This document shows positions 1,883 through 53,988 of a DNA stretch of 64,000 nucleotides, piece after piece (positions within the stretch are counted from its first letter, which is position 1; each line of letters starts with the position of its first letter). The notes beneath the pieces are model-generated. The model was not told where the DNA came from. It saw only the letters and a list, made by a program, of their open reading frames with translations, and ran no database searches. The DNA is taken from the NCBI GenBank assembly GCA_035221665.1, contig CM069163.1, forward strand, positions 21,266,001 to 21,330,000. Reading direction: 5' to 3'. Made by a program: the position numbers and the translations under genes. The DNA comes from Okamejei kenojei. Its lineage: Eukaryota.

Positions 1883-3947
1883 GGTGCCCGGACGTGGCGC
1901 CGACGGACAAGAATCCGAAGCAAAGACGTCGAAGCCAAAGGACGGAATGGAAACGAGGCCGAAACGCCAATAAACCGAAAGAGTCCAAAGACGAAACGCC
2001 AACCAGCCGAAAGGATGGGACGCCTAAATGCAAACTAACCGAAAGGGCGGGACGCCTAAATCCCAAAGAACCAAAAAGCTGCGTCGCCTAAAAGTAAACT
2101 TACCGAATGGCCGCTCTGTTGAAATGCCACCTACCCGAAAGGCGGCGTCGCCTACAGGCTAAAGGACCGACTGCCGCTCAACGGAAAAGTCCAATAAGGG
2201 ACTTGTCAGCGATTGGTCCAGACCCCCGCGTCCATCACATCACTGTGAAGGCATGAACATTGTCCCAAACCTCCGCTCCACCCGACCCGCAGCCCGCGGA
2301 GGGTGGCCGTGGGAGAGTGGGGGCTGTCCCGAGGAATGCTCACCTTCGGCCGCTTTCAACTTGGTGCTTGGGTTCAGATTGCCCAGTCACCCATGGCTTG
2401 TGTGGGAAAATGAACCCCACGCTCCCGTCTCCCCTCTTCTCTCTCCCCTCTTCTCTCTCCTCTTCTCTCTCCCTCATCTCTATCTTTCCTCTCCCCTCTT
2501 CTCTTCACTACTCTCCCCCCTCTCTCTCCCCCCCTCTCTCTCTCCCCCTCTCTCCCCCCCTCTCTCTCCTCCCCCTCTCTCTCTCTCCCCTCTCTTCTCT
2601 CCCCCCTCTCCTCCTCCCCTCTCTCTCTCTCCTCTCCATCTCNNNNNNNNNNNNNNNNNNNNNNNNNNNNNNNNNNNNNNNNNNNNNNNNNNNNNNNNNN
2701 NNNNNNNNNNNNNNNNNNNNNNNNNNNNNNNNNNNNNNNNNNNNNNNNNNNNNNNNNNNNNNNNNNNNNNNNNNNNNNNNNNNNNNNNNNNNNNNNNNNN
2801 NNNNNNNNNNNNNNNNNNNNNNNNNNNNNNNNNNNNNNNNNNNNNNNNNNNNNNNNNNNNNNNNNNNNNNNNNNNNNNNNNNNNNNNNNNNNNNNNNNNN
2901 NNNNNNNNNNCCCCCTCTCTCTCCCCCCCTCTCTCTCCCCCCCTTCTCTCTCTCCCCCCTCCTCTCTCTCCCCCCCTTCTCTTTCTCCCCCCTCTCCTCC
3001 CCCCCTCTCTCCTTCCCCCCCTATCTCTCCCCCCCCTCTCTCTCTCCCCCCCCTCTCTCTCCCCCTCTCCTCCCCCCTCTCTCTCCCCCCCTCTCTCTCC
3101 CCCCCTCTCTCTCCTCCTCCCTCTCTCTCTCCCCCCCTCTGACTGCGGTCGGAGGAGGGGGGGGGGGGGGACACCCTGGTGTGGAGGTTGGAGTCCGATG
3201 GCAGTGCGTCACAGTCAGTGACTGTGGGACGTTCCCGTGGGTGGAGACGGAGGAGAGGGAGAGAGAGAAGGGAGAGGGGGAGAGAGAGAGAAGGGAGAGG
3301 CGAGGAGTGGAGAGAGAAGAGTGGAGAGAGAAGAGCGGAGAGAGAAGGGAGAGAGAGAGAGGAAAAGAGAGAAGAGGGGAGAGAGAAGGGGTAGACGGGA
3401 GCGTGGGGTTCATTTTCCCACACAAGCCATAGGTGACTGGGCAATCTGAACCCAAGCACCAAGTTGTAAGTGGCCGAAGGCGTGCATCGCTCGGGACAGC
3501 CCCCACTCCCCACGGGCTGCGGGTCGGGTGGAGCGGAGGTTCGGGACAATGTTCATGCCTTCACAGTGATGTGATGGACGCGGGGGTCTGGACCAATCGC
3601 TGACAAGTCCCTCCCCCCGGCAACGTCAAGTCCGTTATTGGACTTTTCTGTTGAGCGGCAGTCGGTCCTTTAGCCTGTAGGCGGCGCCGCCTTTCGGGTA
3701 GGTGGCATTTCGACAGAGCGGCCATTCGGTAAGTTTGCTTTTTGGCGACGCAGCTTTCAGTTCCTTAGGTTTTAGGTGTCCCGCCCTTTCGGTTAGTTTG
3801 CATTTAGGCGTCCCATCCTTTCGTCCGTAGGCGTTTCGTCTTTGGACTCTTTCGGTTTATTGGCGTTTCGGCCTCGTTTCCATTCCGTTCTTTGGCTTCG
3901 ACGTCTTTGCTTCGGCCTCTCGTCCGTCGGCGCCACGTCCGGGCACG
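1883..3947. mobile_element. Foldback-type non-autonomous DNA transposon with long terminal inverted repeats (Mutator/FB-like)
   Basis: About 1883-2460 is the reverse complement of about 3360-3947. Termini gGTGCCCGGACGTGG...CCACGTCCGGGCACg. 8-bp direct repeat TTTCTCAG at 1875-1882 and 3948-3955. Subterminal ACGCC..CCGAA repeats; CT-rich centre containing a gap. Confidence 0.85.
2643..2910. other. Assembly gap (268 N)
   Basis: N run inside a CT-rich tract. Confidence 1.
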
Positions 3948-11779: not shown

Positions 11780-12420
11780 GTGTGATCCTTAGAGCTGAAC
11801 TATCCTTTCACTTCCCCACATATCCAACAGACCTAGAGGCTTTGCTGCCATGGTCTGCAGGTTATCACTGTGTCTCATGCAAAGGATTGAGAGACCAATC
11901 TGTTTTCTTTTGTTTTTTTCTAAATGTCTGAAAATCAGAGACATTTGTAAATAGCTTAAACATATTTACATGTGTTTAAAAATGAAATACAAAAATAATA
12001 CTAGTAGAGTACACAATTGCAATAAGTGGAATAGATTGATGATCTAAATTTCAATGAGGTAGATTATAAATACCCCAGAAGCTATGCATCTGGATCCTAG
12101 TTACACGATAATGTGCAGAAACCAGGTAAGAACCAGCTCTCCACTGGAAATTCTTAAATTGCTGTGAATATATTGTGAAGGTGTTCTTTTTTTTAAAAAC
12201 AGAATTATTGAGATAAATTTAGTGATTTATGTCTGTTATATGCGACTAACGCTTTTGTTTTGAGCTTTAAATTTACCTTATCTATTTGTTCTTCGAAATT
12301 GGGCATCTGATAGTTACTGATTTTATATCGCGTTGTGTGATGATTCAGGATTTTGAGTATAAATTTGCCATTTCTAAGCATATCAAGTATATCCATATGT
12401 GTCAAAGAGGTTAGTGCCAT

Positions 12421-13193
12421 ACTCATCCAACATTTACACCACCAACGGGATTGCACTACTGGCCCCACCTACACCCCTTTCTCCTTTCCGCAGAGACCGT
12501 TCCCTCCGAAACTCCCTGGTCAACCCGTCCCTTCCCACCCAAACCACTCCTTCCCCAGGTACTTTCCCCTGCAACCACAAGAGATGCACCACTTGTCCCA
12601 TCACCTCTCCCCTCGACTCCATCCGAAGAGCCAAACAGTCTTTCCAGGTGAGGCAGAGGTTCACTTGCACCTCCTCCAACCTCATCTACTGTATCCGCTG
12701 TTCCAGGTGCCAACTTCTCTACATCGGTGAGACCAAGCGCAGGCTCGGCGATCATTTCGCTGACCACCTCCGCTCAGTCCTTCTTGACCTACCTGATCAC
12801 CCAGTGGCTCAGCACTTCGACTCCCCCTCCCATTTCTGTCCTGGGCCTCCTCCATTGTCACAGTGAGGCCCAGTGCAAATTGGAGGAACAGCATCTCCTA
12901 TTTTGCTTGGGTAGTTTACATCCCACTGGTATGAACATTTACAGTACTTCTCTAACTTCAGATAGCCCTGGCTTTCCCTCTCTATCCACTCCCCCTTCTC
13001 CCACTAGTCTTACTGTCTCCGACTACATTATATCTTGGTCCCGCCCCCTCCCCTGACATCAGTCTGAAGAAGGGTCTCGACGCGAAACATCGCCCATTCC
13101 TTCTCTCCAGAGATGCTGTCAGACCCGCTGAGTCATTCCAACATTTTGTGTCCACCTTCGATTTAAACCAGCATCTGCAGTTCTTTCCTACAC
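12421..13193 (+). mobile_element. Penelope-like retroelement 3' part: Cys knuckle, GIY-YIG endonuclease, and pLTR with hammerhead motif
   Basis: ORF 12399..12866 has FRRDRSLRNSLV, PCNHKRCTTC (Cx4CxxC linker as in Neptune-type elements) and NLIYCIRC..LLYIGETKRRLGDHFADH (GIY-YIG). CTGAAGA..GAAAC at 13064-13088. Confidence 0.88.
13061..13095 (+). ncRNA. Minimal type I hammerhead ribozyme motif, slightly mutated
   Basis: CTGAAGA-A-GGGTCTCGACGC-GAAAC-ATC: one mismatch in stem II, and ATC instead of GTC. Confidence 0.55.
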
Positions 13194-16100
13194 TTAATGC
13201 CATACTTGATAAACTGACAAAGTAAAAGCTGGAGTTAAGTCCTCACTAGTATTCAAGTTAAATATGACCAAGCAACTTTTTTTAGCTGGTTTTTGAGTCC
13301 CAGTTTTTTTTAATTTTGCATCGCTCTTTGGTTTTACGTTCCAGAGCCTCATCAAAGAATTTGGTTGCAGCCCTTGTGCAATGTGAACTGTCATTTGCAT
13401 TGTCCTAGTCAGCATTAGCTTAATTTATATCAAAGAGAATTTGTTTCAAGAACTCTATCTGTGCTTGAAATGTTTTACTTTGAGCTGAAGCTAGGCTCTA
13501 TGGAATATATCTAAATGTTTTGGGGCCAATTAGGCAATCCCTTGTTTAATCCAAGGAATTTTTTAGTTGGATAAAGAACAAAATTGTTTGGATCTATTTT
13601 GTTCATTCTGATTATGTGCAAACGTTAAGCTAGTTCTGATGTTTATGCTGATGCATATAAGGTCAACAATCTGTCAATAGTGGTAGCATATGTAAAAATA
13701 GAATGAGAGATTATTCCTAAATACCGATCAAAACTATAATTTGCAAATTTTGTGTCCTATTTGGAGGGAACATATTTTTGTTTTTAGCTGCGGGATGTTT
13801 GTGAGATAGATATTGCAGTCCTCTTAGGAATTTGCCATCCTGCTCCCAAAACATAATATCATCTGCAAATTTAGATATCATGTTTTTGAGTCTAAATCTT
13901 AATTATGAATAACAGTAGTCTCGTTATTGAGCAAAACATTAGTATCAATAATAGTAACCATGAATCTACAGGCTTGTTGTTAAGCCTATCTATTTTACTC
14001 CTGTCATTCTGAGAAGAAAATCACCCATACTTACCAAATTATACGTGTGATCAGACCTATGTCAAAACATAATAAGCAAAATGGACTAACCACCTGACAT
14101 CAATCGAGGCACATGGGAGAGGAGCATGCAGCATAGTAAACCATGCAAAGTTCTCCTCATAAATCTTGAGTCACCAGAAGTGGCAATACAGTGGTTTACA
14201 GTCAAGACTGAATGATCCTGGGCCTGTAAATATTGACTCCAAACCCCCTGGCTTCTCATGGCAAGGAAACGATCACCTACTCAGCTGATTAATCAATGTT
14301 CCACATGTTGAATGCTCTTTGGAAGAAGAACAGAGTGGCAGAGTACTATGAGTGGATGAACATTAATGTTCATCAGCAAGAGTGGCTTAGCACCATCAGT
14401 GGCACTGCCCTGAAAGGCATGTCTGCTGGTTTAAATTGTGCCAGTTGGTGCAAAAGGCCACCAAAGTGATACATTTATTTGATTTTTCCCTCATCAATTT
14501 TTATTTTGGAAACGCCTCTGTTGTTAATAGTAATGGTCTGCACAAATCATAGGGACACAAGCTTCCATCATAGAAATAAGGACATCCTTTAGTACCAAAA
14601 AATCAACATAATTATGTAACTCTTACAAGTATATTTTTTATCAGAATAACAGTTCTGATTAAGATGCACAATGTAGCATAGTATCGTTTACTAATTGTAC
14701 CAACCAAGCATACGGTGTCAATACTGGCTTCATGTATATGGGGCATGAGATACATTCTAAGAAATTCACCATTGCAACTTAAGGACTTCATATGCCCATT
14801 AAACATGAAACATTTAAAATTATTTATTTTAAGTAATTATTTCCAGCATTGTAAATGTTTCATGTTTTGAGCAGTACTTGAGTAATTGGAATTATTACCT
14901 GTACGAAATACAGTTAGTATATTGTTGTATTCCAAAAGCCAAACATTGGATAGGACAGTGGCAGTGAAATGGTTTCTAAATACACAGGTTGTTAAAAGTG
15001 TAATTGCTGATAAATATTAGATTTGGATCTTATTTTCCCTATAATTATGCCTGGCATTATCAACAAACATGCTGAGAAATGGATAGATCATCAAATAGAA
15101 CATATGTTTATGGAATTCATAATCTTTCTCCTCATCTATTCCCCCTTCCTTTACTTGTTATTTGCTAAATATCTATATATTGTTTTGGTTGTGTCACTAA
15201 CTTTTCCACAAAACACAAGTGCTATAGTAACTCATTGGGTCAGACAGCATCTGTGCTGTTTGATCTTTACTGAATTTTCCCTTCATTTCTGCAATGCTCT
15301 GACTTTTTTTAAATTTTCCTTTTTTTTTAAATCTTCTCATGGGAGCTGATTATAGGATCTGCAAGTCCACTAAAGTTTCAAAGAAACAGTACATCATAGA
15401 AAGTCCAAGTTCAATTGTTTTTGCAATTATGCATCATATTCTCTACTAATTTTCTAACGACGATTATATAATTTGCATTCCTTTAGTTTACTCTTTATCA
15501 ACTGTTGTTTAAAAGTAGTTTTAAAATCAATTTTCAAGACTTTCTTTAAAAGTAAATACTCAATCTTTTCCCTTCTTTGTTATTTTAAATTCCCCTCTCT
15601 CAGTCATCTCTCCTCTCCTCTGAACACGTACATTATTTCAACAAAGAACCCATCATACTACAGCCAAGATTTCGCTTGGTACAGACATTACATACAGATT
15701 TAATAATTTGATAAGTAAATAAATGAAACTAAGGGGAGTAGTTTTACGGTTCAGTTGCATGGAATGGTATCTAATCAGCCAAATAAAACTGGACTTAGTT
15801 TCCTGTAGAGACTTTTTGCCCACTGTCCCAGCCAACCAACACTTTTTTGGGCATGATGCAGAAGATCGACCAAATTGACCCCCCTGCCAGATGGTCTGGC
15901 TAAGTTTAGCAAGGCCTCAGCAATAGATAGGCCTCCGCCAGCTGGGCCTATGCCTGGAACTCGTTGACAGCTCTTGACAAGAGGCAAAGCTGGGGATGAA
16001 TCTTTGCCTTTGTTATTCTTAATGCTTTTCAAATAATTTTCAAATGATTAAGATCATTGTAAATAATTTCAAATCCTGTGCCAATTCTGACTGAACTAGG

Positions 16101-16548
16101 CTTGGACAGGTGGATTCCAGCAAAATGCTGGAAAAATCCCAGCAAGGAACAGCACCATTCCTTGTACTGTAGGTCTTGGATTTATAACAAATGACGCTTA
16201 CGTCCGGACCATACTTACCTGGGAGGTTGCTGCAGCCAGTATGATTCATCCCCATGTTATTTATTCTCTTCTCTGGCCACCAGTTAACTATATGCAGCAG
16301 CTACTTACTCGCCGTTTATAATGTTCTGCATTTTGTGTTGTTGGACAACCAAACATTATTATTGTTATTTTTTTTATTAGCCAACTGTTAGCAGATTCTT
16401 ATTCAGTTCCCCAAGGCTTTCTGACAGCAGACTACTCTTGGCTAGAAGATCACAGGTCAACATTTGCATCTCCAGAATCCAATTGGGCTTGAGAAAATTT
16501 CAGCATTACATGGCTCGTTGGCGGCCTAACTGCCAATAGTTAACTTGG

Positions 16549-16598
16549 GGAGATGCAAGTCTGAAGAAGGGTCTCGACCCGAAACGTCGCCTATCTCC
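16549..16598 (+). ncRNA. Type I hammerhead ribozyme motif with intact core
   Basis: CTGAAGA 16561-67; stem II GGGT-CTCG-ACCC; GAAAC 16581-85; GTC 16586-88. Stem I GGAGAT (16549-54) pairs with ATCTCC (16593-98). Confidence 0.72.
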
Positions 16599-16654
16599 TT
16601 CGCTCCTTAGATGCTGCTGCACCCGCTGAGTTTCTCCAGCATTTTGTGTAACCC
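16549..16654 (+). mobile_element. 106-bp Penelope-pLTR-derived mini-element with 16-bp target-site duplication
   Basis: CCAATAGTTAACTTGG repeated exactly at 16533-16548 and 16655-16670; insert is homologous to the pLTR ends at 13061-13155 and 18831-18920. Confidence 0.85.
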
Positions 16655-17580
16655 CCAATAGTTAACTTGGACTTGTTTCTCTCCATTAGTAGTGCTGAAG
16701 TTTTCTTCTATGCTCCTTCATCGATTTGTCACAGCTTCCAGCACAGTTACTGTCTAGTATCAAATTCTAATCCTCAAGAAAATGAGGTGCACTTATCTGC
16801 AGCATTGTGTCTCTCTGTGGTACTCCATACTGATGTTTCTTGGGGTGCTGGTGTCATAGATTTAGATATTTCAAATGTATTGTTGCTGTCTGTTATTTGA
16901 CAAATGAGGACCTAGCTTTTGACCACAAGAGAAAATAGTTGGTGAAAGACATGATCCAAATCCTCTGAACGACAGTAATCCTGGCAGAGATCATCATCTC
17001 CAATAATCTCTGCAGAGAGTCAATGGTAACGATTATATCATCCTCGTAGCACTGCACAGTTCAAAATACATTCCCAGATCCATTATCTTGTCTTTGCCGT
17101 CCACTGGTTAACTATAGGTGCCATGGCAATCGGCACACGCATTGTTCACTCCTGCAAGATCTTCAAATGAGAGCCTCGGTAGTTGTGGAGTAGAGCAACA
17201 TGGCAGGAAGCAAAACGTGAACTACATGGTCAGGACTTATTTGGCAAACAGCTTATTCCGAAGAATGTTTCCCTTCTGAGCTGTGCCAACAGTTGTTATG
17301 CAGTTGGCCAAAAAACTGCTGAGTGCCAAGCCAACAGATGATAAACAGCACTATTAGGCAAAATGCATCTTTAGAGTTTATGAGTCATCTACACAAAGCA
17401 AGATGCAACATTTTGCTTAAAATAATTCTAATAGTGAGCGGCCACAATTAAAGTTTAAATATTAAAGGAGAGATTTAGAATCGATCCTTTTGAAATTTGT
17501 AACAATCAAATCTTAATAAAAAGTTTGTAATCTGAAGAAAAATAACTCGGGAGTTACAACCGTAGGAGATGCAATACCTG

Positions 17581-18960
17581 TTCCTATACCTCCTCCCTCG
17601 ACTCTGTCCGGGGACCCCAACAGTCCTTCCAGGCTAGGCAGAGGTTCACCTGCACCTCCCCCAAACTCATCTCCTGTAAACGTTGTTCAAAGTGTGGACT
17701 CCTATACATAGGCGAGACTAAACGTAGATTGGGCAATCGTTTCGCTGAACACCTTCGCTCACTCAATAGACAAAAGGTGCAGGAGTAGGCCTTTCGGCCC
17801 TTCGAGCCAGTGTGATTCAATATGGTCATGGCTGATCATCCACAATCAGTACCCCATTCCTGCTTTCTCCCCATATCTCCTGACTATGAGCCCTATCTAG
17901 CTCTCTCTTGAAAGTATCCAGAGAACCGGCCTCCACCGCCCTCTGAGGCAGAAAATTCCACAGACTTGCAACACTCTGTGTGAAAAAGTGTTTCCTCATC
18001 TCCGTTCTAAATGGCTTACCCCTTATTCTTAAACTGTGGCCCCTGATTCTGGACTCCCACAACATCGGGAACATGTTTCCTCCCTCTAACGTGTCCAAAC
18101 CCTTAATAATCTTATATGTTTCAATAAGATCCCCTCTCATCCTTCTAAATTCCAAAGTATACAAGCCCAGCTGCTGCATTCTCTCAGCATATGACAGCCA
18201 TGCCATCCCGGGAATTAATCTTGTGAACTTACGCTGCTCTCCCTCAATAGCAAGAACTTCCTTCCTCAAATTTGGAGAAACAAAACTGCACACAATACTC
18301 CAGATGTGGTCTCACTAGGGCCCTGTACAACTGCAGAAGGACCTCTTTGCTCCGAAACACAACTCATCTTGCTATGAAGGCCAACATGCCATTCGCTTTC
18401 TTCACTGCCTGCTGTACCGGGACCTGGACCTACCTGATCTCCTGGTTGCCAAACACTAATTCCTCTTCCTATTCCCACGCAGACCTTTGTGTCCTTGGCC
18501 TCCTCCATTGTCGGAGTGAAGCCAAATGCAAATTGGAGGAACAGCACCTCGTATTTCACTTGGGCAGCTCACAACCCAGCAATATGAATATTGATTTATC
18601 TTACTTCGTTACCCTTGCATCGCCTCTTTCTCCATCTCTCCCCCACCCGTTGTACTAATTTCAAAGTTGTCTTGTTGAGTCTCATTGTATGTAACTCGTT
18701 TTCACCTAGCCCACAGCTAACAATGGCCTGTTTCTTTTATCATCGCTACTTTTTTGCATATATGTTATTCATTTCTTCTATATTTCTCTCTATATCACTT
18801 TATCTCTCGTTTCCTTTACCCCTGACTCAATCTGAAGAAGGGTCTCGACCCAAAACGTCACCATTCCTTTTCTCCAGAGATGTTGCCTGGCCCGCTGATT
18901 TACTCCAGCTTTTTGTGTCTATCTTTGGTTTAAACCAGCATCTGCAGTTCCTTCCTACAC
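17581..18960 (+). mobile_element. Second Penelope-like 3' fragment (GIY-YIG and pLTR), split by a CR1 insertion
   Basis: 17581-17763 and 18418-18960 are colinear with 12600-13190 (LLYIGETKRRL; CKLEEQHLVF). The hammerhead at 18832 has GAAA changed to AAAA. Confidence 0.85.
17764..18417 (-). mobile_element. CR1 LINE 3' fragment nested in the Penelope element
   Basis: ORF 17826..18293 (FTRLIPG..RMRGDLIETYKI..RGHSL); 3' tail GGCCTACTCCTGCACC on the minus strand. Confidence 0.9.
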
Positions 18961-19231
18961 TCTAAATTGCGGTTCCTGTTTTTATGTGTTATCTATCATA
19001 CTCAATTCAATACAATATATGTGTCTTTGTTGAAATGAATGATGCACAGCTCTGGATATTTGTTTTGAGAGAAGAATAAGGAATAATGCAATACATACAG
19101 AATTAAACTACATTATAGATGTAGTACATTACAGTATATAATGGTATTGTAACAGTCTGCATTGAAATAAGTTAGGGATGATAAGTGATGACAAATAGTA
19201 AGTGTTATACATTGATGCATATGACCATAAC

Positions 19232-28629: not shown

Positions 28630-29530
28630 TAATTTCTGGGACTTAATGAAGGGAAGACAGAGGTGATTTTGTTTGGACCCAATGGCTGCCGTGATCCTCC
28701 CTTTGTTGATTTGGGCCCATTGGCATTGTCCGTAAGGCCAACCGTTTTGAACCTGGGTTTTAGGATGGACGGTGATTTTAAACTAGATAAACAAATAGGC
28801 GCGGTGGTTAAGTCCAACTTCTTTCACCTAAGGAAGCTGGCAAAGGTGAAGCCCATTCTCGAGCGGCAGCATTTTGAAACAGTAATCCATGCCTTTATTA
28901 CATCTAGGCTGGATTATTGTAACGCACTCTACTCTGGAGTCGCAAGAGCTTCATTGGCTCGTCTCCAGCTTGTCCAAAATGCCGCCGCTCGCCTTTTGAC
29001 AGGAGCTCGAAAGAGGGAGCACATTACGCCAATTTTGGCCTCCCTTCACTGGCTCCCAGTGCATTTTCGAGTTCACTTCAAAATTCTTTTGTTTGTTTTT
29101 AAATCGCTGAATGGGCTCGCCCCGTCTTATCTCTCTGAGCTGCTCCACCTATATGCTCCTGCCCGGTGCCTCAGGTCAGCTGATCAGCTGCTCCTTGAGG
29201 TACCAAGGTCTAAGCGGAGGCTCAGAGGGGATAGAGCCTTTTCTGTTGCTGCTCCGGCACTCTGGAACACCTTGCCGCTGCACATCAGACAGGCCCCCTC
29301 ACTGTCCATCTTCAAATCCTCCCTCAAGACTCATTTTTATTCCTTGGCTTTCGACACTGGCTGAGGCTTTGCTCCTGTTCTTAGTGCTTTTAATGTCTTT
29401 TAACTTTTAGAGTGTGTTTTTTATAGTCCTTCGTCTTACGGTTTTTAATGGTTTGTAATGTTTTGTCCATGAGTTCTCATGTACAGCACTTTGTGGCAAC
29501 TGTAGTTGTTTAAAGCGCTTTATAAATAAA

Positions 29531-34048: not shown

Positions 34049-34280
34049 GATAGACACAAAATGCTGCAGTTACCCAGCGGGTCAGGCAGCATCTCTGGAG
34101 AACATGGATAGGTGACATTTTGGGTCGGGACCCTTCTTCAGACTGATTGTAGTTGGGAAGTCTGAAAAGGGTTTCGATCCGAAATGTCATCTCTCCATGT
34201 TCTCCACAGACACTGCCTGACCCGCTGAGTTATGCCATCATTTTGTGTCTATCTTTAGTATAAACCAGCATCTGCAGTTT
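34049..34280. mobile_element. Head-to-head inverted pair of Penelope pLTR/hammerhead fragments
   Basis: 34049-34144 (minus) is the reverse complement of 34159-34253 (plus); both hammerhead cores are mutated. Confidence 0.78.
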
Positions 34281-34558
34281 TTGTTTTAATTACATTAATG
34301 TACCATGAATACAAGAAGGATATCTCCATGAATCTGGTTCAAGTGTAAACGCAAAAAGCTGAAGACATTACAATTCTGAATCCAAACTCTCAACATTTTA
34401 TACTGCCCTTTCCCCATCATTTTCGAAACACATTGGATCCATGATAATGAGCGCACACCAAGGGCAATGGTCCCATCTCTCTAAAGTCTCATGTTAGAGC
34501 GTTGTGTGAAGTGTACTCTGGAATACCCACTGACCATTGCTTGCTCTTGTTTCTGCAG

Positions 34559-34826: not shown

Positions 34827-35930
34827 TTAGTGTGCAAAATTAGAGCACATGGTATTGTGAGTAGGGTATTGACATGGATAGAAAAGAGTAAGAATCAACG
34901 GGTCCTTTTCAGAATGGCAGGCAGTGACTAGTGAGGTGCCGAAGGCTTGGTGCTGGGACCTTAGTTATTTACAATATATATTTAGACAAGGGAATTAAAT
35001 GTGACATCTCCAAGTTTGCGGATGACTCAAAGCTGGGTGGCAGTGTGAGCTGTGATGCGGATGCTATGAGGCTGCAGGGTGACTTGGATAGGTTGGGTGA
35101 GTGGGCAGATGCATGGCAGATGCAGTATAATGTGGATAAATGTAAGGTTATCCACTTTGGTGGCAAGAACAGGAAGGAAGATTATTATCTGAATGGTGTC
35201 AGATTAGGAAAAGGGGAGGTGCCAAGAGACCTGAGTGCGCTTGTACATCAGTCACTGAAAGTAAGCATGCAGGGACAGCAGGCAGTGAAGAAAGCTAATG
35301 GCATGTTGGCCTTCATTGCTAGAGGATTTGAGTTTAGGAGCAAGGAGGTCCTACTGCAGTTGTACAGGGCCCTAGTGAGCATACCTTGAGTATTGTGTGT
35401 AATTTTGGTCTCCTAATTTGAGGAAGGACATTATTGCTATTGAGGGAGTGCTGCGGAGTTTACCGGGTTAATTCCCGGGATGGCGGGACTGACATATGAT
35501 GAAAGAACGGGTCGACTGGGCTTGTATTCACTTGAATTTAGGATGAGGGGGATCTTTTAGAAACATTAAATTCTTAAAGGATTGGACAGGCTAGATGCAG
35601 TAAAAATGTTCCCGATGTTGGGGGAGTCCAGAACCAGGGGTAACAGTTTAAAAATAAGGGTGGACCATTTAAGAGTGAGATGAGGAAAATCTTCTTCACC
35701 CAGAGAGTTGTGAATCTGTGGAATTCTCTGCCACAGAAGGCAGTGGAGGCCAATTCACTGGATGTTTTCAAGAGAGAGTTAGAGTTAGCTCTTAGGGCTA
35801 AAGGAATCAAGGGGTATGGGGAAAACGGGACTCTGATTTTAGATGATCAGCCATGATCATATTGAATGGTGGTGCTGGCTCGAAGGGCCGAATGGCCTAT
35901 TCCTGCACCTATTTTTCTGTTTCTATGTTT
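34827..35930 (+). mobile_element. CR1 LINE, 5'-truncated
   Basis: ORF 34931..35389 (SKFADDSKLGG..LQGDLDRL..WQMQYNVDKC) followed by a complete 3' UTR. Confidence 0.9.
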
Positions 35931-39974: not shown

Positions 39975-40140
39975 GGAACTGCAGATGCTGGTTTACAAAA
40001 AAATCACAAAATGGTGGAATAACTCAGCAGGTTAGTCAGCATTCCTGGAGAACAGTCGAAGAAGGGTCCCGATCCAAAAACGGCAACTATCCATTCTCCA
40101 GGGATGGTGCCTGATCCACTGATTTACTTTAGCACTTTGA
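39975..40140. mobile_element. Second inverted pair of pLTR fragments, degenerate
   Basis: Minus piece 39975-40053 abuts plus piece gtcgaagaagggtcccgatccaaaaacggc..ctccagggatggtgcctgatcc. Confidence 0.6.
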
Positions 40141-40861
40141 GTAATAAACCTCAACTTGTTTGCACAGTTTTCAAAGACAAAGCGTGGTATGGTTAGACAG
40201 CATTGACCAATTTTATGCAGATTTCTGAGTGCGATATCTTTGGTCGTTAATGAGGATTGACTTACCGGTACAGGAACTTTATATAACCTTGTACTTTTTT
40301 TCCCATTGTCCCGCTTACAAATGTGATGTCAGTTGCAGACTGACTCCCAAAGTCTGTTTCTGATGAGACTTTCAACCACCTTGGTTAAAATCACCAATGG
40401 TGGGTTTCCATGGAGGAAGAAAGAGCATTTGATAATGATGAAGCCACAAAATTAGTTCAAGGGGTCAGGCACATTTCCCAACAGTAGAGGACAGAATGCT
40501 GCACCACTGTTTGCCAAAGGCATCAAACAAATTGACTCAAACTGTGATACCATTTACCACATTCTCAGGTAATTTCAGCAAAATTCAGTGGCTACAAATG
40601 CCAACATTTTGCAAACAAGAAGCACTTCCATCGTCAACAGATGAGAAATGAGTAAAATAAAAATGGAGAAAGACCTCTGACAAAACACATGGTGTTCATG
40701 GTAAAACTTGCCAGACCATCTATACTTTTATGATTGCCTGTACTTTTGGGAGCTCTGCACTCTATCCCTTTAGGCTCTTTGAAAGTAGAAATGCAAAGGA
40801 CACATTTATGAAAAATCTGGTAGAAATGTAGCCTTTTTGCACTAAATGTGTGTACAACAAG

Positions 40862-41476
40862 TGTCATGTTGGCCTTCATAGCGAGAGGATAGGAGCAAGG
40901 AGGTCCTACTGCAGTTGTACACGTCCCTGGTGAGACCACACCAGGAGTATTGAGTGCAGTTTTGGTTTCCTAAGTCGAGGAAGGACATTCTTGCTATTGA
41001 GGGAGTGCAGCGTAGGTTCACCAGGTTAATTCCCGGGATGGTGGGACTGACATACTGTATGATAAAATAATGGATTGACTGGGATTATATTCACTGGAAT
41101 TTAGAAGGATGAGAGGGTATCTTATAGAAACATATAAAATTCTTAAGAGATTGGACAGACTAGATGTAGGAAAAATGTTCCTGATGGTGGGGGAGTCCAG
41201 AACCAGGGGTCACAGTTTAAGAATAAGGGGTAGGCCATTTAAGACTGAGATGAGGAATATTTTTTTCACCCAGAGAGTTGTGAATCTGTGGAATTCTCTG
41301 CCACAGAAGGGGTTGGAGGCCAATTCACTGGATGTATTCAAGAGAGAGTTGGATATAGCTCTTAGGGCTAATGGAATAAAGGGATATGGGGAAAAAGCAG
41401 GAACGGGGAACTGATTTTGGATGATCATCCATGATCATATCAAATGACCTACTTCTGCACCTATTTTCTATGTTTC
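40862..41476 (+). mobile_element. CR1 LINE 3' fragment
   Basis: ORF 41109..41414: MRGYLIETYKI..RTRGHSL..FFTQRVVNLWNSLP. Confidence 0.88.
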
Positions 41477-43321
41477 AATAATAATGGGTCTCAGCAGGAG
41501 CAGCATCCAGAAATTCTGAAGAATAAATTCCTAATGTTCGGGTGATTCTGACTGACTGCAGAACACTTATCTTAAGTGACACTTGAAGTTTGCTGGGTAA
41601 CCAAACACAAGTGCCTGTGCTGCTCTCAACGTACTTTGAGTCACCCTAACTCTCAGAAATCTTGTCTCACAATTCTTGCAGTCTGTATCTTCTGACATAT
41701 GATACTTTGCTGCTCCATTGGGTAGTTTCTGATTTTTCATCAAACCTGGAAGGAGTATTTGACTACATTGCCGGACCTCCAACATTTTAAGCATTCATAA
41801 TGGCTAATCATGTCCTTCCATTTACCTCTCTGACAACTTCCATGCACATGTGCCTCTTTCTGATGGAAGTTAGCTTCTGAACATACTGTTCTTAAGAGGT
41901 TTTTGCGAGTTCATCTATCTTGTCAGGATCACTCTCCAGCCCCTGTCCTTTTAATGTACAATGCACTCGTACACAGCTATCACCCTCCTGGTTGTATTAT
42001 GTTGTCTTTTCAGGGTTACTTGCTACAGTCAAGGTTTTGAAGAAAGTTATCATCATTGTTAACATAACATGCAATGTTCTTAAAATGGAACCCATTTAGT
42101 GCTGCTTTGGAACTGCTACTAATGAATTTCATGACCTTTTGAAACAGATTACCAGTGCTGTTTTAAAGCCAGGAAACACTACAGACACATTTTTGGTCTA
42201 TGTTTTGTCTTCTGGGTAGATTAGAATTATATTACATCATCTAAATCTTATTTAACAATAGCCTAGTTGAATAGAGGGGTAGATAGTTGATTAGCAGCCA
42301 AATTACTTACAAATGTACTGTATGAGTATACAATTTATGTGCTATACACTAGTTCAGCGACACTTGTTTATCCTGATGTATAGAATTAATGTTTATTTGG
42401 CAAGGTAATAGTTAATCTGCTGGTCACAGCATTCATCTGATAAATTTAATGGAATCAATCCAACAGGAAGGGCTAAGATTAGGAATACAATTATTTTAGA
42501 ATTCTATATTTATCTGCCAAAACTGGAACTGTTACAGCATAAACAACATCTAGAATTCAAAACTGATAAAATGGGCATTAGATAATGGAGAGCTGCTGCC
42601 AATAATAAATATTAGATAATGTTTGCTTTTATCCTATAACATACAGTTCGGTCTATGTAACTACAACTGGAATTAAATCATGTGATCTTATTCTTAAACC
42701 CAATATGCAGCGAAGGGGGAATGTTTACACCGTAATTCAGCACACAGTGATTTCCTGATTTTTATTTTTCCCTGCATCTAGTGGTACATATCAAACCGAG
42801 ACCAGTGTTTTCTCCGTGAAAAAGTGAGGGGACTTTTTTTGTCCATAATTGTTCTTATACTCGGGTATTCCTCTTAGCCAATTACTTTAAAACAGTGTAA
42901 AGGGCCAGATACCCTGATTCCCAGCAATGAGGAGACCGAAAGCAAGACCAAGTTAGCATTCAAATCTGGTCCAAAATCTGGAATATAAAAAGGAAATGCG
43001 AGGGAAGATTATTATGGCCCCGATTTTGCTGAAAAACGTCAATAACCAATGCATATTGTTACTGATGTGCAACTCATCTCGCAGTGTGTGGTATGTGAAC
43101 CACTGTGTTGCTGGCTAACTTGCACATTTCCACCTGAAGATTTCTAAAATTTGCATGAGTAATCTCACAATGCACACTAATTTCCCTTAAAAGTTGCTAA
43201 ATTGTTAAAATGTATGATGAACATAGTAAGCACCCATTGACATGATCATTGTTACTGCTTGATAAACATTTTATTTTACTTGGAATGTGAAAAGTGATTC
43301 TCATTCCGCAGATTGTGTTGA

Positions 43322-43413
43322 ACACAACGTGCTGGACTAACTCAGCAGGTCAGGCAGCATCTACAGAGGACATGGATATGGGATTTTTCGAGTCAGGACT
43401 CTTCTTCAAACTG
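43322..43413 (-). mobile_element. Degenerate pLTR fragment
   Basis: gctggactaactcagcaggtcaggcagcatct..tttcgagtcaggactcttcttcaaactg. Confidence 0.6.
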
Positions 43414-46003: not shown

Positions 46004-47980
46004 TGCCCCTGTCACACTTAAGCCCCTGTCCCACTTATGCCCCTGTCCCACTTAGGAAACCTGAACGGAAACCTCTGGAGACCGTGTGCCCCACCCAAGG
46101 TTTCCATGAGTTTCCCGGGGGTTCCGGTCACTCTCCATGAGTCGCCAGAGGTTCTGGTCAATTGCCTGGAGAGCCTCAACCGAAGCGCGAGCTGCATCNN
46201 NNNNNNNNNNNNNNNNNNNNNNNNNNNNNNNNNNNNNNNNNNNNNNNNNNNNNNNNNNNNNNNNNNNNNNNNNNNNNNNNNNNNNNNNNNNNNNNNNNNN
46301 NNNNNNNNNNNNNNNNNNNNNNNNNNNNNNNNNNNNNNNNNNNNNNNNNNNNNNNNNNNNNNNNNNNNNNNNNNNNNNNNNNNNNNNNNNNNNNNNNNNN
46401 NNNNNNNNNNNNNNNNNNNNNNNNNNNNNNNNNNNNNNNNNNNNNNNNNNNNNNNNNNNNNNNNNNNNNNNNNNNNNNNNNNNNNNNNNNNNNNNNNNNN
46501 NNNNNNNNNNNNNNNNNNNNNNNNNNNNNNNNNNNNNNNNNNNNNNNNNNNNNNNNNNNNNNNNNNNNNNNNNNNNNNNNNNNNNNNNNNNNNNNNNNNN
46601 NNNNNNNNNNNNNNNNNNNNNNNNNNNNNNNNNNNNNNNNNNNNNNNNNNNNNNNNNNNNNNNNNNNNNNNNNNNNNNNNNNNNNNNNNNNNNNNNNNNN
46701 NNNNNNNNNNNNNNNNNNNNNNNNNNNNNNNNNNNNNNNNNNNNNNNNNNNGATGAGCATTTTCTGCATGTGAAGAAGAAAGTAAACGGCTGCCACAGAG
46801 CATGGTAAATCCTTTAGAGAGGGAGAGAAGGAGTGGAGACAGTTTTAGGAAGTTTAATAAAGTTAGCGGGCATTTTACCTTCCGGCGGATCTTCTAGGTT
46901 CTGAAAACCAAATAAGATTTCTTTGCCAAAAACTCCAATGAGCCAATCAGAATGGCCGGTCAGTGAAGGCCTTCAACTGGCTGTAAGTAAAAATGCGACC
47001 CCACTACTGGCTTCAACAAAACAGCAACCTATTTTTAGTTGCGGCCGGTTTTGTTTTTTTTTAAATAATCGCAGGAACGTAGCAGAAGCCGCAATTACGC
47101 GGAATCCACTTTCCACAATTAGGGAGAGTGACAGGAACCTCATGGAAACCTTGGGTGGGGCGCAAGGTCTCCAGAGGTTTCCGTTCAGGTTTCTAAAATG
47201 GGAAGATCCGCCGGAAGGTAAAATGCCTGCTAACTTTATTAAACTTATTAAAACTGTCTCCACTCTTCTCCCCCCCGTCCTCTCCCCTTCTCCCCCATTC
47301 TCCTCCCTTCTGTCTCCCCTTCTCTCTCCCCTTCTCTCTCCCCTTCTCTCTCCCCTTCTCTCTCCCCTACTCTGTCCTTCTCTCCCTCTCTCCCGCGCTG
47401 TCTAAATGACTTACCGTGCTCTGTGGCAGCCGTTTACTTTCTTCTTCAACACGCAGAAAGCGCTCCTCCGCCGTCCCTGGCCCCACCTTCGCGATGTGTT
47501 TGTGTGTGTGTGCGCGGTCGGCAGCGAAGATCCTAACTTTGGTCAGTAGATGCAGCTCACGCTTCGGTTGAGGCTCTCCAGGCAATTGACCAGAACCTCT
47601 GGTGACTCATGGAGAGTGACCGGAACCTCTGGGAAGCTCACGGAAACCTTGGGTGGGGCACACGGTCTCCAGAGGTTTCCGTTCAGGTTTCCTAAGTGGG
47701 ACAGGGGCTTTAGGAAACCTGAATGGAAACCTCTGGAGACTTTGCGCTCCACCCAAGGTTTCCGTGCGGTTCCCGGAGGTTTTTGTCAGTCTCCCTAATG
47801 GTCGAAAGTGGTATCCGCTTCTTCTATGTTACGGCGATTATTTCAAAAAATTCAAAACCGGCCGCAACTAAAAATAGGTTGCCGTTTTAAAAATAGGTAA
47901 TTTTTTAGTCAAAGCCGGTTGCGATGCTAGTTGAAGGTGGTTGCCGGAGGTTGCAGGTAGTGGAAGGTAAGACCTCCCTG
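46004..47980. mobile_element. Nested cluster of non-autonomous PIF/Harbinger-like elements
   Basis: TIR start WGCCCCTGTCCCAC occurs three times (46004 with one mismatch, 46021, 46038), each preceded by TAA or TTA. Matching right end GTGGGACAGGGGCT ends at 47709 and is followed by TTA. Internal inverted repeats pair 46770-46895 with 47200-47450. Confidence 0.8.
46199..46751. other. Assembly gap (553 N)
   Basis: N run. Confidence 1.
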
Positions 47981-50257: not shown

Positions 50258-52807
50258 GTAAGTGCCCTACGTTATTAGATTAATTTTTGAATCTCATTGT
50301 TTGGAAGCATGACCGATAGCTTTGGTGTATAATATGTTTTTCACGCCTTTATATTCATTTAATAATGTTGTTTATGAGTATGCTATTCAGAAATGTGACG
50401 TGTAAGAGTACTGGGATACTCAACCTCTCTCATTGAATGTACCCAATGTTGACACTGTTTATCAATTTAGTTTGTAATTTTCATTAGATAGTTTATCTTG
50501 ATTTTTTTTTATTATTATAGAGAAACTTTCTTCTGATAAATAGCAGGAAAGTGCATTTTATGTTTCCATTAAATATTTAATCAACAAAATTTAATGAATT
50601 TTACCTTCATGAAATATAAGAGTTTTTGAAAACAACTTGAGTGCATGAAGTTCAAGAGTGATGAAAGTTTATTCAACTCATTATTAATTGTGGATCAGGT
50701 TAAGAATGAATGAGATGCCTATACCTTCTTTCCACATTGCATAATAACTAGATAAATAATTCAAATTTACCACCAACTCAAAGCAGCTCATTCATGACTT
50801 TCTTTGGTGAGAAAATACTTCAATCCCTTGAATAAGCACAGAATAATTTTGAAGTCAAAAGTTCTTAAAGTTAGTTGTATAATGTGTGTTTATAAGCACT
50901 ATGTGTCCCTACTTGTGCATAAAACTGAAGGATCATGCATTCATTGAGCATTAAGCAGCACCCTTCAATGGCCACACTAACCACCATCAGCTTTCCCTGC
51001 TATTTGGCATCAACTCATTGGCTGCAGTGTGCACGACGTTACAAATAGATGTCAGTATTTCTTCAAGACTTCATGGGGGCAAATGGAAAAGCCTCAACTA
51101 GCGCCAAGTAAGGATGGCCAAGTACAGCAATTACTTGGGTTTTCTAACAGAGCACACACAATGCAAATATTTCAATATTGAATAGAGATTTATGGAAAGA
51201 AAGCAAGTAATTCAGCTCATCATTTTCATGTTGGTCATAGGTAGAGCTACTTGGGTTATCTTATTTTCCAAATTTCAATCTGTGGCCTTGGTTCTGGTTC
51301 TTCGTGTGCTCATTTAGGCACTTACTAAACATGATATGTTTCCTCATTCTCAACAGCAGAGCCGCCCGCATATTAGTTTCACTACGAGCACCACAGTGGC
51401 TCTGGAAACTTACAAGAATTAACCAAATCACCATACCAACCATTTTCTTTTATATCAATGCCAAAACCATACAGTTGTTGTCTGATTAGTCTTTTGTGTT
51501 CCTTTTAGTGCCAGTCCCTCCTGTGTTTTTGCCTGTGTGTCTACTTCTGTACTGAGGTTTCCTAGTGTTGCAGCTAGGCTAATGCATGGTTACTTGCCTG
51601 GTGTAAAAGAGATAACAGATGACTGTGGAGGGCAACTGTGAGCAGCCCCAGACCAAGGTAGCTCCGTTTTTTTAAACATCTTGCAATGAATAACAGCAAT
51701 CTAGGTTAAATGATGACATTTGTTCATGTGGTTGAAGCTGGAGTGCCTCATGTTCCTAGGCATCTCATGTAGTCGTTGTGAATGGCTGCGTAATTTCCCA
51801 GACATATCACTATCTTGGTGATCAACTATTTGTTTGCTGCCCTATCGGGTAGAATTAGTGTGCAATCACTCTTTGGTAAACTTGCACCTGAGCTACACTT
51901 TCTCCCTTGCCTGGCAGCAATTAATGTGCCTGGTGAATCACTGCATGCATATCCCATCTCTGAAGTGCTGTGTATTAAGCTCTAGGATCTAAACAGATGC
52001 CTATGAATATTTGGATCTAGTGATTTTGTATCATTTTCATCTTAATACATGGGCTACTTAGCCCAAGCATTGGAACAAAAAAGGCACAAAGATACAATTG
52101 GGATGATGAGAGGAACCAGGTAAAAGTAACATGTGTAACCATCTGAATATAGTAAAGCAGAAAAGAGTGTGAGGGACAGGGGGGTGAGCAGAGGAGGTGC
52201 AGGAAGATGGCATGTGGATGTGTGGTTATCTTTGATAACATCTGATTTCTTGGCCAATTGCTTTACGAATACTGATTCCACGAAGGACAGTAGTCTCTCT
52301 AATGCAGCATTAGTGTTTAGCAATATGCTTGTTATGGTTGAAAAATGGTTTTAGCCATTTCAGAGTGATCCATTTCCACTAATGAGAGTCTCCAGGCCCC
52401 CCAGTCATGCAGAACTTGCCTCTAGGTGTCCATCTCTTCCATTGGGACTTGGTATCTGCATTGGAGAATCAGCATCTCTTTTCCCATGTATGTGTCACCA
52501 TTCTTGTGAACAATTCACTCAACCTGGATCGCAGCTTTGCCTTTAAGAGTTACATGCATGGATTCTATTTGGTTAGTTTTAGATTGTGCACACGACTCTT
52601 AACCGTACTTGGGATTATTATGTGCCGAAGTAAAGAAAAATTGTATTTGCTATCACATAAATTCAAGTATCTTTGGACAAGTTACACTCAAGGAACAGCA
52701 CTGAAGAGCCAAACCGGAACAGATCTCCTGCGCATGTTTTTAGCATTTATATTCATGGTATTTGTATTTCTCCAACTAAATAGCTACATATGTTTTCCTA
52801 TTTAAAT

Positions 52808-53988
52808 TGCCTTAGAAAAGGTCCCACACAGGAGAATGGTGACTAAAATTAGAGCACATGGTATTGGTAGGGTGTTGACGTGGATAGAAAATTGGTTGAC
52901 AGACAGGAAGCAAAGAGTAGGAGTGAACGGGTCCTTTTCAGAATGGCAGGCAGTGGCGAGTGGCGTGCCGCAAGGCTCGGTGTTGAGGCCACAACTGTTT
53001 ACCATATATATTAATGATTTGGAAGAGGAAATTAGGAGCAACACCAGCAGGTTTGCGGATGACACAAAGCTGGGTGTCAGTGTGAACTCTGAAGAGGATG
53101 TTAGAAGGTTGCAGGGTGACCTGGACAGGTTGAGTGAGTGGGCAGATGCGTGGCAGATGCAATCTAATATAGATAAATGTGAGGTTATGCACTTTGGTGG
53201 CAAAAACAAGGGGGCAGATTATTATCTCAATGGGGTTAGGTTAGGTAAGGGGGCGGTACAGCGAGACCTGGGTGTCCTTGTACACCGGTCACTGAAAGTT
53301 GGCGTGCAGGTACAGCAGGCAGTGAAGAAAGCTAATGGAATGTTGGCCATAACAAGAGAATTTCAGTACAGGAGTAGAGAGGTTTTTTTGCAGTTGTATA
53401 GGGCTATGGTAAGACCACATCTGGAGTATTGCGTACAGTTTTGGTCTCCTAATTTGAGGAAGGACATTCTTGTGATTGAGGCAATGCAGCGTAGTTTCAC
53501 GAGATTGATCCCTGGGATGGCGGGACGGTCATATGAGGAAAGATTGAAAAGACTAGGCTTGTATTAACTGGAGTTTAGAAGGATGAGGGCGGATCTTATA
53601 GAAACATATAAAATTATAAAAGGACTGGACAAGCTAGATGCAGGAAAAATGTTACCAATGTAGGGCGAGTCCAGAACCAGGGGCCACAGTCTTAGAATAA
53701 AGAGGAGGCCATTTAAGACTGAGGTGAGAAAAAACAATTTCACCCAGAGAGTTGTGAATTTGTGGAATTCCCTGCCACAGAGGGCAGTGGAGGCCAAATC
53801 ACTGGATGGATTTAAGAGAGAGTTATATACAGCTCTAGGGGCTAGTGGAATCAAGGGATATGGGGAGAAGGCAGGCACGGGTTATTGATTGGGGGCAATC
53901 AGCCATGATCACAATGAATGGCGATGCTGGCTCGAAGGGCCGAATGGCCTCCTCCTGCACCTATTTTCTCTGTCTCTGTTTCTATGTT
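52808..53988 (+). mobile_element. CR1 LINE, 5'-truncated and relatively young
   Basis: ORF 52836..53567 (243 aa): SGVPQGSVL..FTIYINDL..FADDTKL..VRPHLEYCVQFWSP; a premature stop is followed by the intact 3' UTR. Confidence 0.92.

Follow-up and report, generated by a model that had tools for sequence, protein, structure and literature searches.

A short Penelope-like insertion with a 16-bp target-site duplication in Okamejei kenojei, and a recurring 5' start among copies of its family

Features of the locus

The window, by which we mean the whole 64,000-nt stretch of Okamejei kenojei DNA analysed here (GCA_035221665.1, contig CM069163.1, positions 21,266,001 to 21,330,000 of the forward strand), carries an insert of 106 bp enclosed between two copies of CCAATAGTTAACTTGG. 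Judged from its sequence, this insert is the ~97 last bases of an abundant Neptune-type Penelope-like element (PLE) together with nine junction bases. The features at the locus and the other members of the family in the window are collected in Table 1.

Table 1. Coordinates of the insertion, its parts and related copies in the window
Feature	Position	Strand	Remarks
Left target-site duplication (TSD), 16 bp	16533..16548	+	Exact repeat; present once in the empty alleles of organisms B and C
Right TSD, 16 bp	16655..16670	+	Exact repeat
Junction piece, 9 nt, outside family sequence; likely fold-back templated insertion	16549..16557	+	With A16558, exact reverse complement of 16464-16473
Flank likely templating the junction piece: 10-nt match 16464-16473, 4-nt anchor 16479-16482	16464..16482	+	Anchor complementary to left TSD end
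3' end module of Neptune-type PLE, recurrent 5' start to short 3' end (last 1-2 C ambiguous)	16558..16654	+	BLAST; contig loose ends at 16558-16560 in 4/4 runs
Hammerhead of the minimal type I form, with a proximal stem I of 2 bp, the core at 16561-16567, an additional A, a stem II of 4 bp and a palindromic ACGU replacing helix III	16558..16590	+	Descriptor, folding; compared with PMC4209133 (in part)
5'-truncated parent-family copy that has a broken GIY-YIG end, a pyrimidine-rich pLTR, the same hammerhead and the long 3' end (tail of 37 nt)	12424..13193 (770 bp)	+	TSD 12411-12423 / 13194-13206
Second GIY-YIG fragment of family; contains junction-piece 10-mer at 17565 (rival source)	17557..17764	+	Sequence comparison
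Further truncated family copy: pLTR, hammerhead remnant, long tail	18379..18961	+	Sequence comparison
Head-to-head pair: short-ended inverted arm, which has 14 nt of pLTR, and direct arm starting at 16558-equivalent base, long tail	34049..34290	.	
Head-to-head pair: inverted arm with long tail and direct arm starting at 16558-equivalent base, short end	39976..40146	.	
Old solo copy beginning at 16558-equivalent base	43318..43412	-	TSD searched, none found

The window also contains repeats of other kinds. Two fold-back structures (1884-3946 and 46018-47888) have long inverted arms, up to 95% complementary, with CT-rich low-complexity cores and assembly gaps, and are possibly MITE-like or a foldback element; exact repeats of 18 and 28 bp with a spacing of 498 bp (47144-47691) lie inside the second. 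Fragments of the 3' part of one LINE-like family with RT remnants, probably CR1-type, occur at 17884-18418, 34967-35915, 40886-41446 and 52806-53967. A plus-strand open frame of 243 codons (28633-29364), without a Pfam hit, has the look of a young LINE's 3' terminus, presumably resembling L2/Rex-type ends, and has decayed less than the elements around it.

The insertion and its empty site

The two 16-bp copies are identical and cannot be extended on either side, which confirms the exact duplication around a 106-bp insert described in an earlier note on this DNA. They form the sole TSD-like exact repeat of at least 16 letters at such spacing among the 12 listed close repeats of at least 13 letters, and no exact 16-mer recurred within 300 bp in any of 20 simulated 64-kb sequences. 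The target site itself is partly palindromic (CCAA...TTGG around a central GTTAAC), with a marginal hairpin of -0.4 kcal/mol.

Public DNA runs cover the region in organism A (five runs from two samples) and, in part, in its relatives; none of the 24 runs listed is of RNA. Contigs of four of these were compared with 16309-16908, two being of organism A and the others X8 (organism B) and X9 (organism C). One contig each in X8 and X9 passes directly from 16532 to 16655, leaving out 122 bp; 16 letters at the joint fit either side, and this is the empty site, with a single 16-letter copy, that the earlier note had proposed to look for in related species. The flanks differ from the window by ~2% in organism B and ~7% in organism C. 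No empty-site contig was found in the two runs of organism A, in which contigs can conceal a rare empty allele and of which X1 may be the window's own sample. The empty sites in B and C, taken with the 16-bp repeat, indicate an insertion with a true duplication that arose on the line to A, in support of the proposal that it is recent. Taken singly, it is an ordinary lineage-specific Penelope copy, serviceable as a presence/absence marker.

The parent Penelope family

By BLAST, 16558-16649 resembles ten other places in the window at ~71-86% identity (11 of 14 rows kept, including the self match; three weak rows with E 0.059-0.72 were left out of the copy count). The match to 13061-13151, downstream of a GIY-YIG frame, is 84% over 92 nt, and the copy to which it belongs (12424-13193) has its own 13-bp TSD with one mismatch. 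The TSD search at the eight other units in the window gave only this one convincing case (12411/13194), the rest having at most 11 letters with a mismatch, or none. The family has two 3' ends, 37 nt apart, a tail length that fits the Neptune-type layout of pLTR, minimal hammerhead, optional 30-40 bp tail and inverted arm, as given in the parts of PMC8557442 and PMC3846280 drawn on here; both the optional tail and the inverted arm are present. Each of the two head-to-head pairs carries the tail on one arm only, a configuration consistent with priming from both nicked strands. The parent family is very abundant: between 61,214 and 87,048 contigs per run fall on the region in the four runs, nearly all of them on the insert, where the summed contig depth of 3-9 x 10^5 times the flank is unsuited as a copy number.

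The protein encoded by copy 12424-13193, P0001, has a CX4CxxC linker and a CxxC between GIY and YIG. A CX2-5CxxC linker before a C-terminal GIY-YIG with CCHH, plus a CxxC between GIY and YIG, is described for Neptune and Nematis (PMC8557442, in part); P0001 has this arrangement, which cannot tell Neptune from Nematis. Its GIY-YIG Pfam score of 17.4 lies below the cut-off of 22.6, and its relatives carrying both RT and GIY-YIG reach E values down to 2e-40; the ten best, out of 201 candidates, come mostly from skates, rays and sharks, and some of these proteins have RT upstream. An annotated shark protein, P0006, has a C-terminus that runs through the pLTR into the hammerhead (SLMKGLRPKR, against SLKKGLDPKR translated from the window hammerhead), and gene models such as this are Penelope fragments.

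These comparisons bear on what the insertion had been taken to be. The link to Penelope holds, in that the same module closes a GIY-YIG-bearing copy, and the attribution to a Penelope RT and endonuclease is judged right. The unit is not 'ribozyme-only', 16558-16654 being the end module that also terminates copy 12424-13193, and what had been called a short tail is the Penelope end region. Nor does the idea of a 'local' RT stand: no Penelope RT motif was found in six frames of the window, whose RT hits look like other LINE-type elements, and within the 64 kb no intact Penelope ORF was found, only broken GIY-YIG fragments, so that the enzyme must have been supplied by a copy elsewhere. Exact copies of the insert were absent from metagenome, viral and prokaryote genome contigs.

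A minimal hammerhead

The hammerhead comprises the core CUGAAGA (16561-16567), an extra A at 16568, stem II (16569-16572/16577-16580) and GAAAC-GUC (16581-16588), with cleavage predicted after C16588. It shows the core CUGANGA, GAAA and UH, the extra base at 9/10.1, the G10.1-C11.1 pair and the palindromic 15.2-16.2 of the minimal form, to which it is assigned because a helix III loop is absent. A canonical type I hammerhead was considered and rejected, as there are no bases between 15.2 and 16.2 and no Rfam match. Of the claim of a 'complete type I hammerhead', therefore, the core letters stand as stated and the completeness does not. In the proposed Rfam search for a hammerhead nothing in the window reached the gathering score, and even at E<=10 the stretch 16400-16800 matched no hammerhead family; two weak Rfam rows (bxd_4 and mir-9201) are chance matches. 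The focal hammerhead is the only descriptor match in the window (three of 20 simulations gave one hit each), and among eight window copies it alone has an intact core.

The pairing GGAGAU/AUCUCC is able to form, with a pair probability of ~0.46 and a fold z of only -0.48, and folding z-scores of the insert lend no support to a special structure. Its 5' strand is not family sequence, however, and the coincidence of insert start and stem I start, to which the earlier note had drawn attention, is for that reason meaningless. Family-encoded stem I amounts to 2 bp, and when the private 5' piece is left out the pair probability of stem II is 0.005. Consensus folding of the copies recovered stem II only; for stems I and II together, 85% of cells across copies are paired with two double changes, a level reached by 60 of 500 shuffles and hence not significant.

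Taken alone, this hammerhead is predicted to be inactive. In the portions of the literature drawn on, the minimal Penelope hammerhead did not cleave as a monomer (PMC4209133), the anole Penelope hammerhead cleaves only with its protein (PMC11167929), and dimer cleavage is attributed to Lunse et al. as cited in PMC6765202. Tandem repeats of the hammerhead core, with a unit of 36-38 nt and joints from 16591-16596 back to 16558/16559, occur in a few contigs of all four runs; they would set two minimal hammerheads side by side and could possibly form an active dimer. In the focal copy, 31 family bases lie 5' up to the cut site and the copy continues past 16588, so that uncut RNA was the template.

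The nine junction bases

The unit was said to start at 16549, with stem I. Family homology begins at 16558, where contig loose ends pile up (16558-16560 in 4/4 runs), and the distal part of stem I is private to the focal copy; none of the listed rows (24 of 690) has loose ends at 16549. A single-copy left-flank contig extends to 16581 in X1 and X4 (organism A, both samples), which, if the contig was built from 31-letter words, suggests that words starting at 16549-16551 are unshared and the junction private.

A source for these bases lies close by. The stretch 16549-16558 matches the flank 76 bp away as a reverse complement at 10 of 10 positions, and the four last bases of the left TSD are complementary to 16479-16482, 5 nt beyond that match; the chance of such a 10-mer within 100 bp is 0.1-0.6%. 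The putative template 16464-16473 is unchanged in the empty alleles of X8 and X9, among the 40 of 42 difference rows listed. It is thus likely that the junction piece was templated by the nearby flank through fold-back of the left target end. The flank is not the sole possible source, since the same 10-mer stands on the sense strand of the family GIY-YIG fragment at 17565, and a switch of template to ORF RNA of the element itself (~480 nt upstream), or an untemplated addition, is a less probable origin that deserves some weight for this piece alone. Against the ORF as donor, the anchor match to the target end is absent beside the ORF site, though present beside the flank site, and one of the two window ORF copies lacks the exact 10-mer.

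A recurring 5' start

Eight copies in the window reach 16558, of which four start there and four continue into the pLTR; three more end short of it. A recurring size class, the lack of which was to have spoken for ordinary 5' truncation, therefore exists, half of the copies reaching 16558 beginning at that base. With the focal copy excluded, three of seven start at 16558. For an assumed stop rate between 0.2 and 2% per base this gives P = 7e-6 to 0.006, but raising the rate to 5% per base takes the significance away (P = 0.065); the seven copies are old, and the insert served as the query that retrieved them. Among the 15 of 58 joints listed, all four that go back return to 16558/16559. In part, the loose ends at 16558 are only to be expected, since copies continuing into the pLTR also depart there.

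The initiator consensus is YYANWYY, and A16558 is the +1 of such an initiator-like match in 4/4 pLTR-bearing copies, a weak signal in that 121 nt of family pLTR contain four matches. A DPE-like motif, sought by eye at +28, was off by ~3 bases and was discarded. Just before 16559 the loose ends (among the 24 of 690 rows listed) are AT-rich and end in G in 4/4 runs, with an agreement to consensus of only 0.31-0.32; of the eight listed joints into 16558, four carry G and four C. Of the between-letter rows, 12 of 473 entered this comparison. The G could be a plain A-to-G change, and none is added at 16558 in the focal copy. An extra G marks full-length L1 insertions (PMC11702581, in part).

According to the sections considered, Penelope start sites lie in the pLTR (PMC2377424, PMC8557442), and in Drosophila Penelope an intron ends at the 5' edge of the hammerhead, well downstream of where transcription starts (PMC4209133, PMC2377424). 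No paper on short Penelope copies that share one 5' start was found in the literature searched, which was mainly open-access. The chances seem even that the copies starting at 16558 are run-off cDNAs, extending from an internal RT start to the RNA 5' end.

Proposed mechanism and rival readings

Overall, the insertion is a short 3'-end Penelope copy with a 16-bp TSD, probably reverse-transcribed from uncut RNA by synthesis from an internal start back to an RNA 5' end just before the hammerhead. Two steps can be read off the copy, namely that the family sequence 16558-16654 ends at the shorter of the two family 3' ends, and that the copy extends across the hammerhead cut site, so that its template had not self-cleaved. 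The remainder leans in part on the anole PLE, whose RT begins synthesis within the RNA, at two sites by which the tail is set (PMC11167929, in part). By analogy, the GIY-YIG domain would nick the target and RT would start inside the RNA at the site defining this 3' end. Synthesis may then stop at 16558 because a capped RNA begins there, at the initiator-like pLTR site, a step as apt to be wrong as right. The left target end would quite likely fold back, copy 9-10 nt of adjacent flank and join the cDNA through one shared base, and a second nick 16 nt from the first would yield the duplication. A transcript starting just before the hammerhead and running into the ORF would place the RT start site ~97 or 135 nt from its 5' end, so that copying from the internal start off that end would give exactly the 97-nt unit; copying the ORF would require a second junction further along a tandem transcript. 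In vitro, the anole protein requires an RNA that extends as far as +172 of the ORF, ~55-60 nt further than the RT start at +111-118 (PMC11167929, in part). The short copy ends at the RT start site and lacks the downstream binding region, for which reason it is predicted to be a dead end.

The same Penelope origin could hold with another meaning for 16558, as a hot spot for stalling or joining, where RT pauses at a folded or protein-bound hammerhead or a near-palindrome aids fold-back and end-joining. Such a hot spot would sit well with the position of 16558 at the 5' edge of stem I, with the head-to-head junctions sharing 1-2 bases that account for two of the four starts, and with the palindromes at inverted junctions of rotifer PLEs (PMC3846280, in part). 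It is nonetheless unlikely, as it leaves the majority of G before 16559 (4/4 runs) and the initiator match unexplained, and the low stem II pairing seen when the private 5' piece is removed indicates a weak fold. More improbable by far is that AG at 16558-16559 is the 3' splice site of a pLTR intron, short copies deriving from spliced RNA and the 9-nt piece from the end of an upstream exon. A pyrimidine-rich stretch followed by CAG does precede the hammerhead, and in D. virilis the intron reaches up to the 5' end of helix I (PMC4209133, in part), but a shared upstream exon would be expected, whereas the junction of the focal copy is single-copy, each of the four short starts is preceded by a sequence of its own and the 9-nt piece has an exact local source.

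It had also been suggested that the unit belongs to a retrozyme or SINE-like family mobilised in trans. In this form, a non-autonomous family of ~97-135 nt with its boundary at 16558 would be copied from its own short masters by the Penelope protein. The recurring size class and the very many copies are in its favour, as are the few contigs with a head-to-tail module or hammerhead-only repeats (the 16650-to-16558 joint occurs in 12, 13, 9 and 3 contigs) and the proposal that retrozymes derive from pLTRs (bioRxiv 2026.07.22.740005, in part). Set against upwards of 60,000 contigs per run, though, those tandem joints amount to a few dozen. The insert is a single unit rather than the tandem hammerhead units of non-LTR retrozymes, rare tandem joints being found elsewhere in the family; it spans the cut site at 16588 instead of ending there, and protein-coding Penelope copies end in the same sequence, all of which speaks against a retrozyme. 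Among the window copies, moreover, short arms are fused to pLTR-bearing arms of the same subtype within one insertion (34049-34290). A SINE-like family that propagates itself is doubtful because short copies lack the RNA beyond the RT start, the ~55-60 nt needed in vitro by the one PLE tested (PMC11167929, in part). This reading as a whole is hence quite improbable, and the short Penelope copy made by internal initiation remains the preferred account.

Significance

The fixed 5' start outweighs the single insertion in importance, the Penelope transposition cycle being still poorly understood. We tentatively propose, at a little less than even chances, that cartilaginous fishes have a large class of hammerhead-headed insertions of 97/135 nt that is the Penelope counterpart of retroviral strong-stop DNA, produced by run-off to a capped 5' end at an initiator before the ribozyme. 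If this is true, such mini-copies map the transcription start of the element, and a unit-length transcript primed internally, close to its 5' end, gives rise to dead-end mini-copies, which would explain both the abundance of solo minimal hammerheads in animal genomes and the need of Penelope for tandem transcripts to copy the ORF. Should the short copies be run-off products, end counts in a shark or ray genome would test the internal-initiation model in vivo and locate the promoter without bench work.

Comparison with known systems

Comparisons here refer to the parts of the cited papers that were drawn on. The closest parallel to the proposed mechanism is Poseidon of the green anole (PAc), in which RT likewise starts internally at two tail-defining sites on an uncut RNA template (PMC11167929). 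The 3' ends also lie at a comparable distance beyond stem II, 86 and 122 nt here and 111-118 nt for one PAc site. PAc is of another clade, and the part of that paper concerned says nothing of short genomic copies that share a 5' end. LINE-1 (PMC11702581) and R1/R2 (PMC2718515) resemble the focal copy in a short flank-derived piece at the 5' junction, with a possible extra G at run-off ends. They are a different class of retroelement and their evidence comes from de novo events, unlike the junction piece and extra G considered here, which are deduced from one fixed copy and from consensus rows.

Non-LTR retrozymes (PMC7229834, bioRxiv 2026.07.22.740005) have in common with the insert a type I hammerhead, no ORF, a TSD of more than 4 bp and a link to the PLE pLTR. 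In contrast to them, the insert is not tandem, its hammerhead is minimal rather than canonical and its ends are unrelated to the cut site; circular RNA is a retrozyme feature, and the insert is known from DNA alone.

Truncated insertions of EN+ Neptune-type PLEs (PMC8557442, PMC3846280) agree with the family of the insert in the sequence of the end module, the spacing of 37 nt between two 3' ends, the occurrence of head-to-head pairs and of long TSDs, and the parent linker and GIY-YIG motifs. The focal copy differs from them in having no pLTR upstream of its hammerhead, and many copies of its family share one 5' start instead of being truncated at random; its TSD is 16 bp, compared with 8-10 bp in rotifer PLEs (PMC3846280). 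The solo minimal hammerheads of animal genomes share its core, the extra base before stem II, the G10.1-C11.1 pair and the palindromic 15.2-16.2, and differ in that the window family has a stem II of merely 4 bp and an encoded stem I of merely 2 bp (PMC4209133). Those hammerheads are mostly single motifs and have already been ascribed to truncated Penelope copies (PMC4209133), and the insertion described here belongs to this known class.
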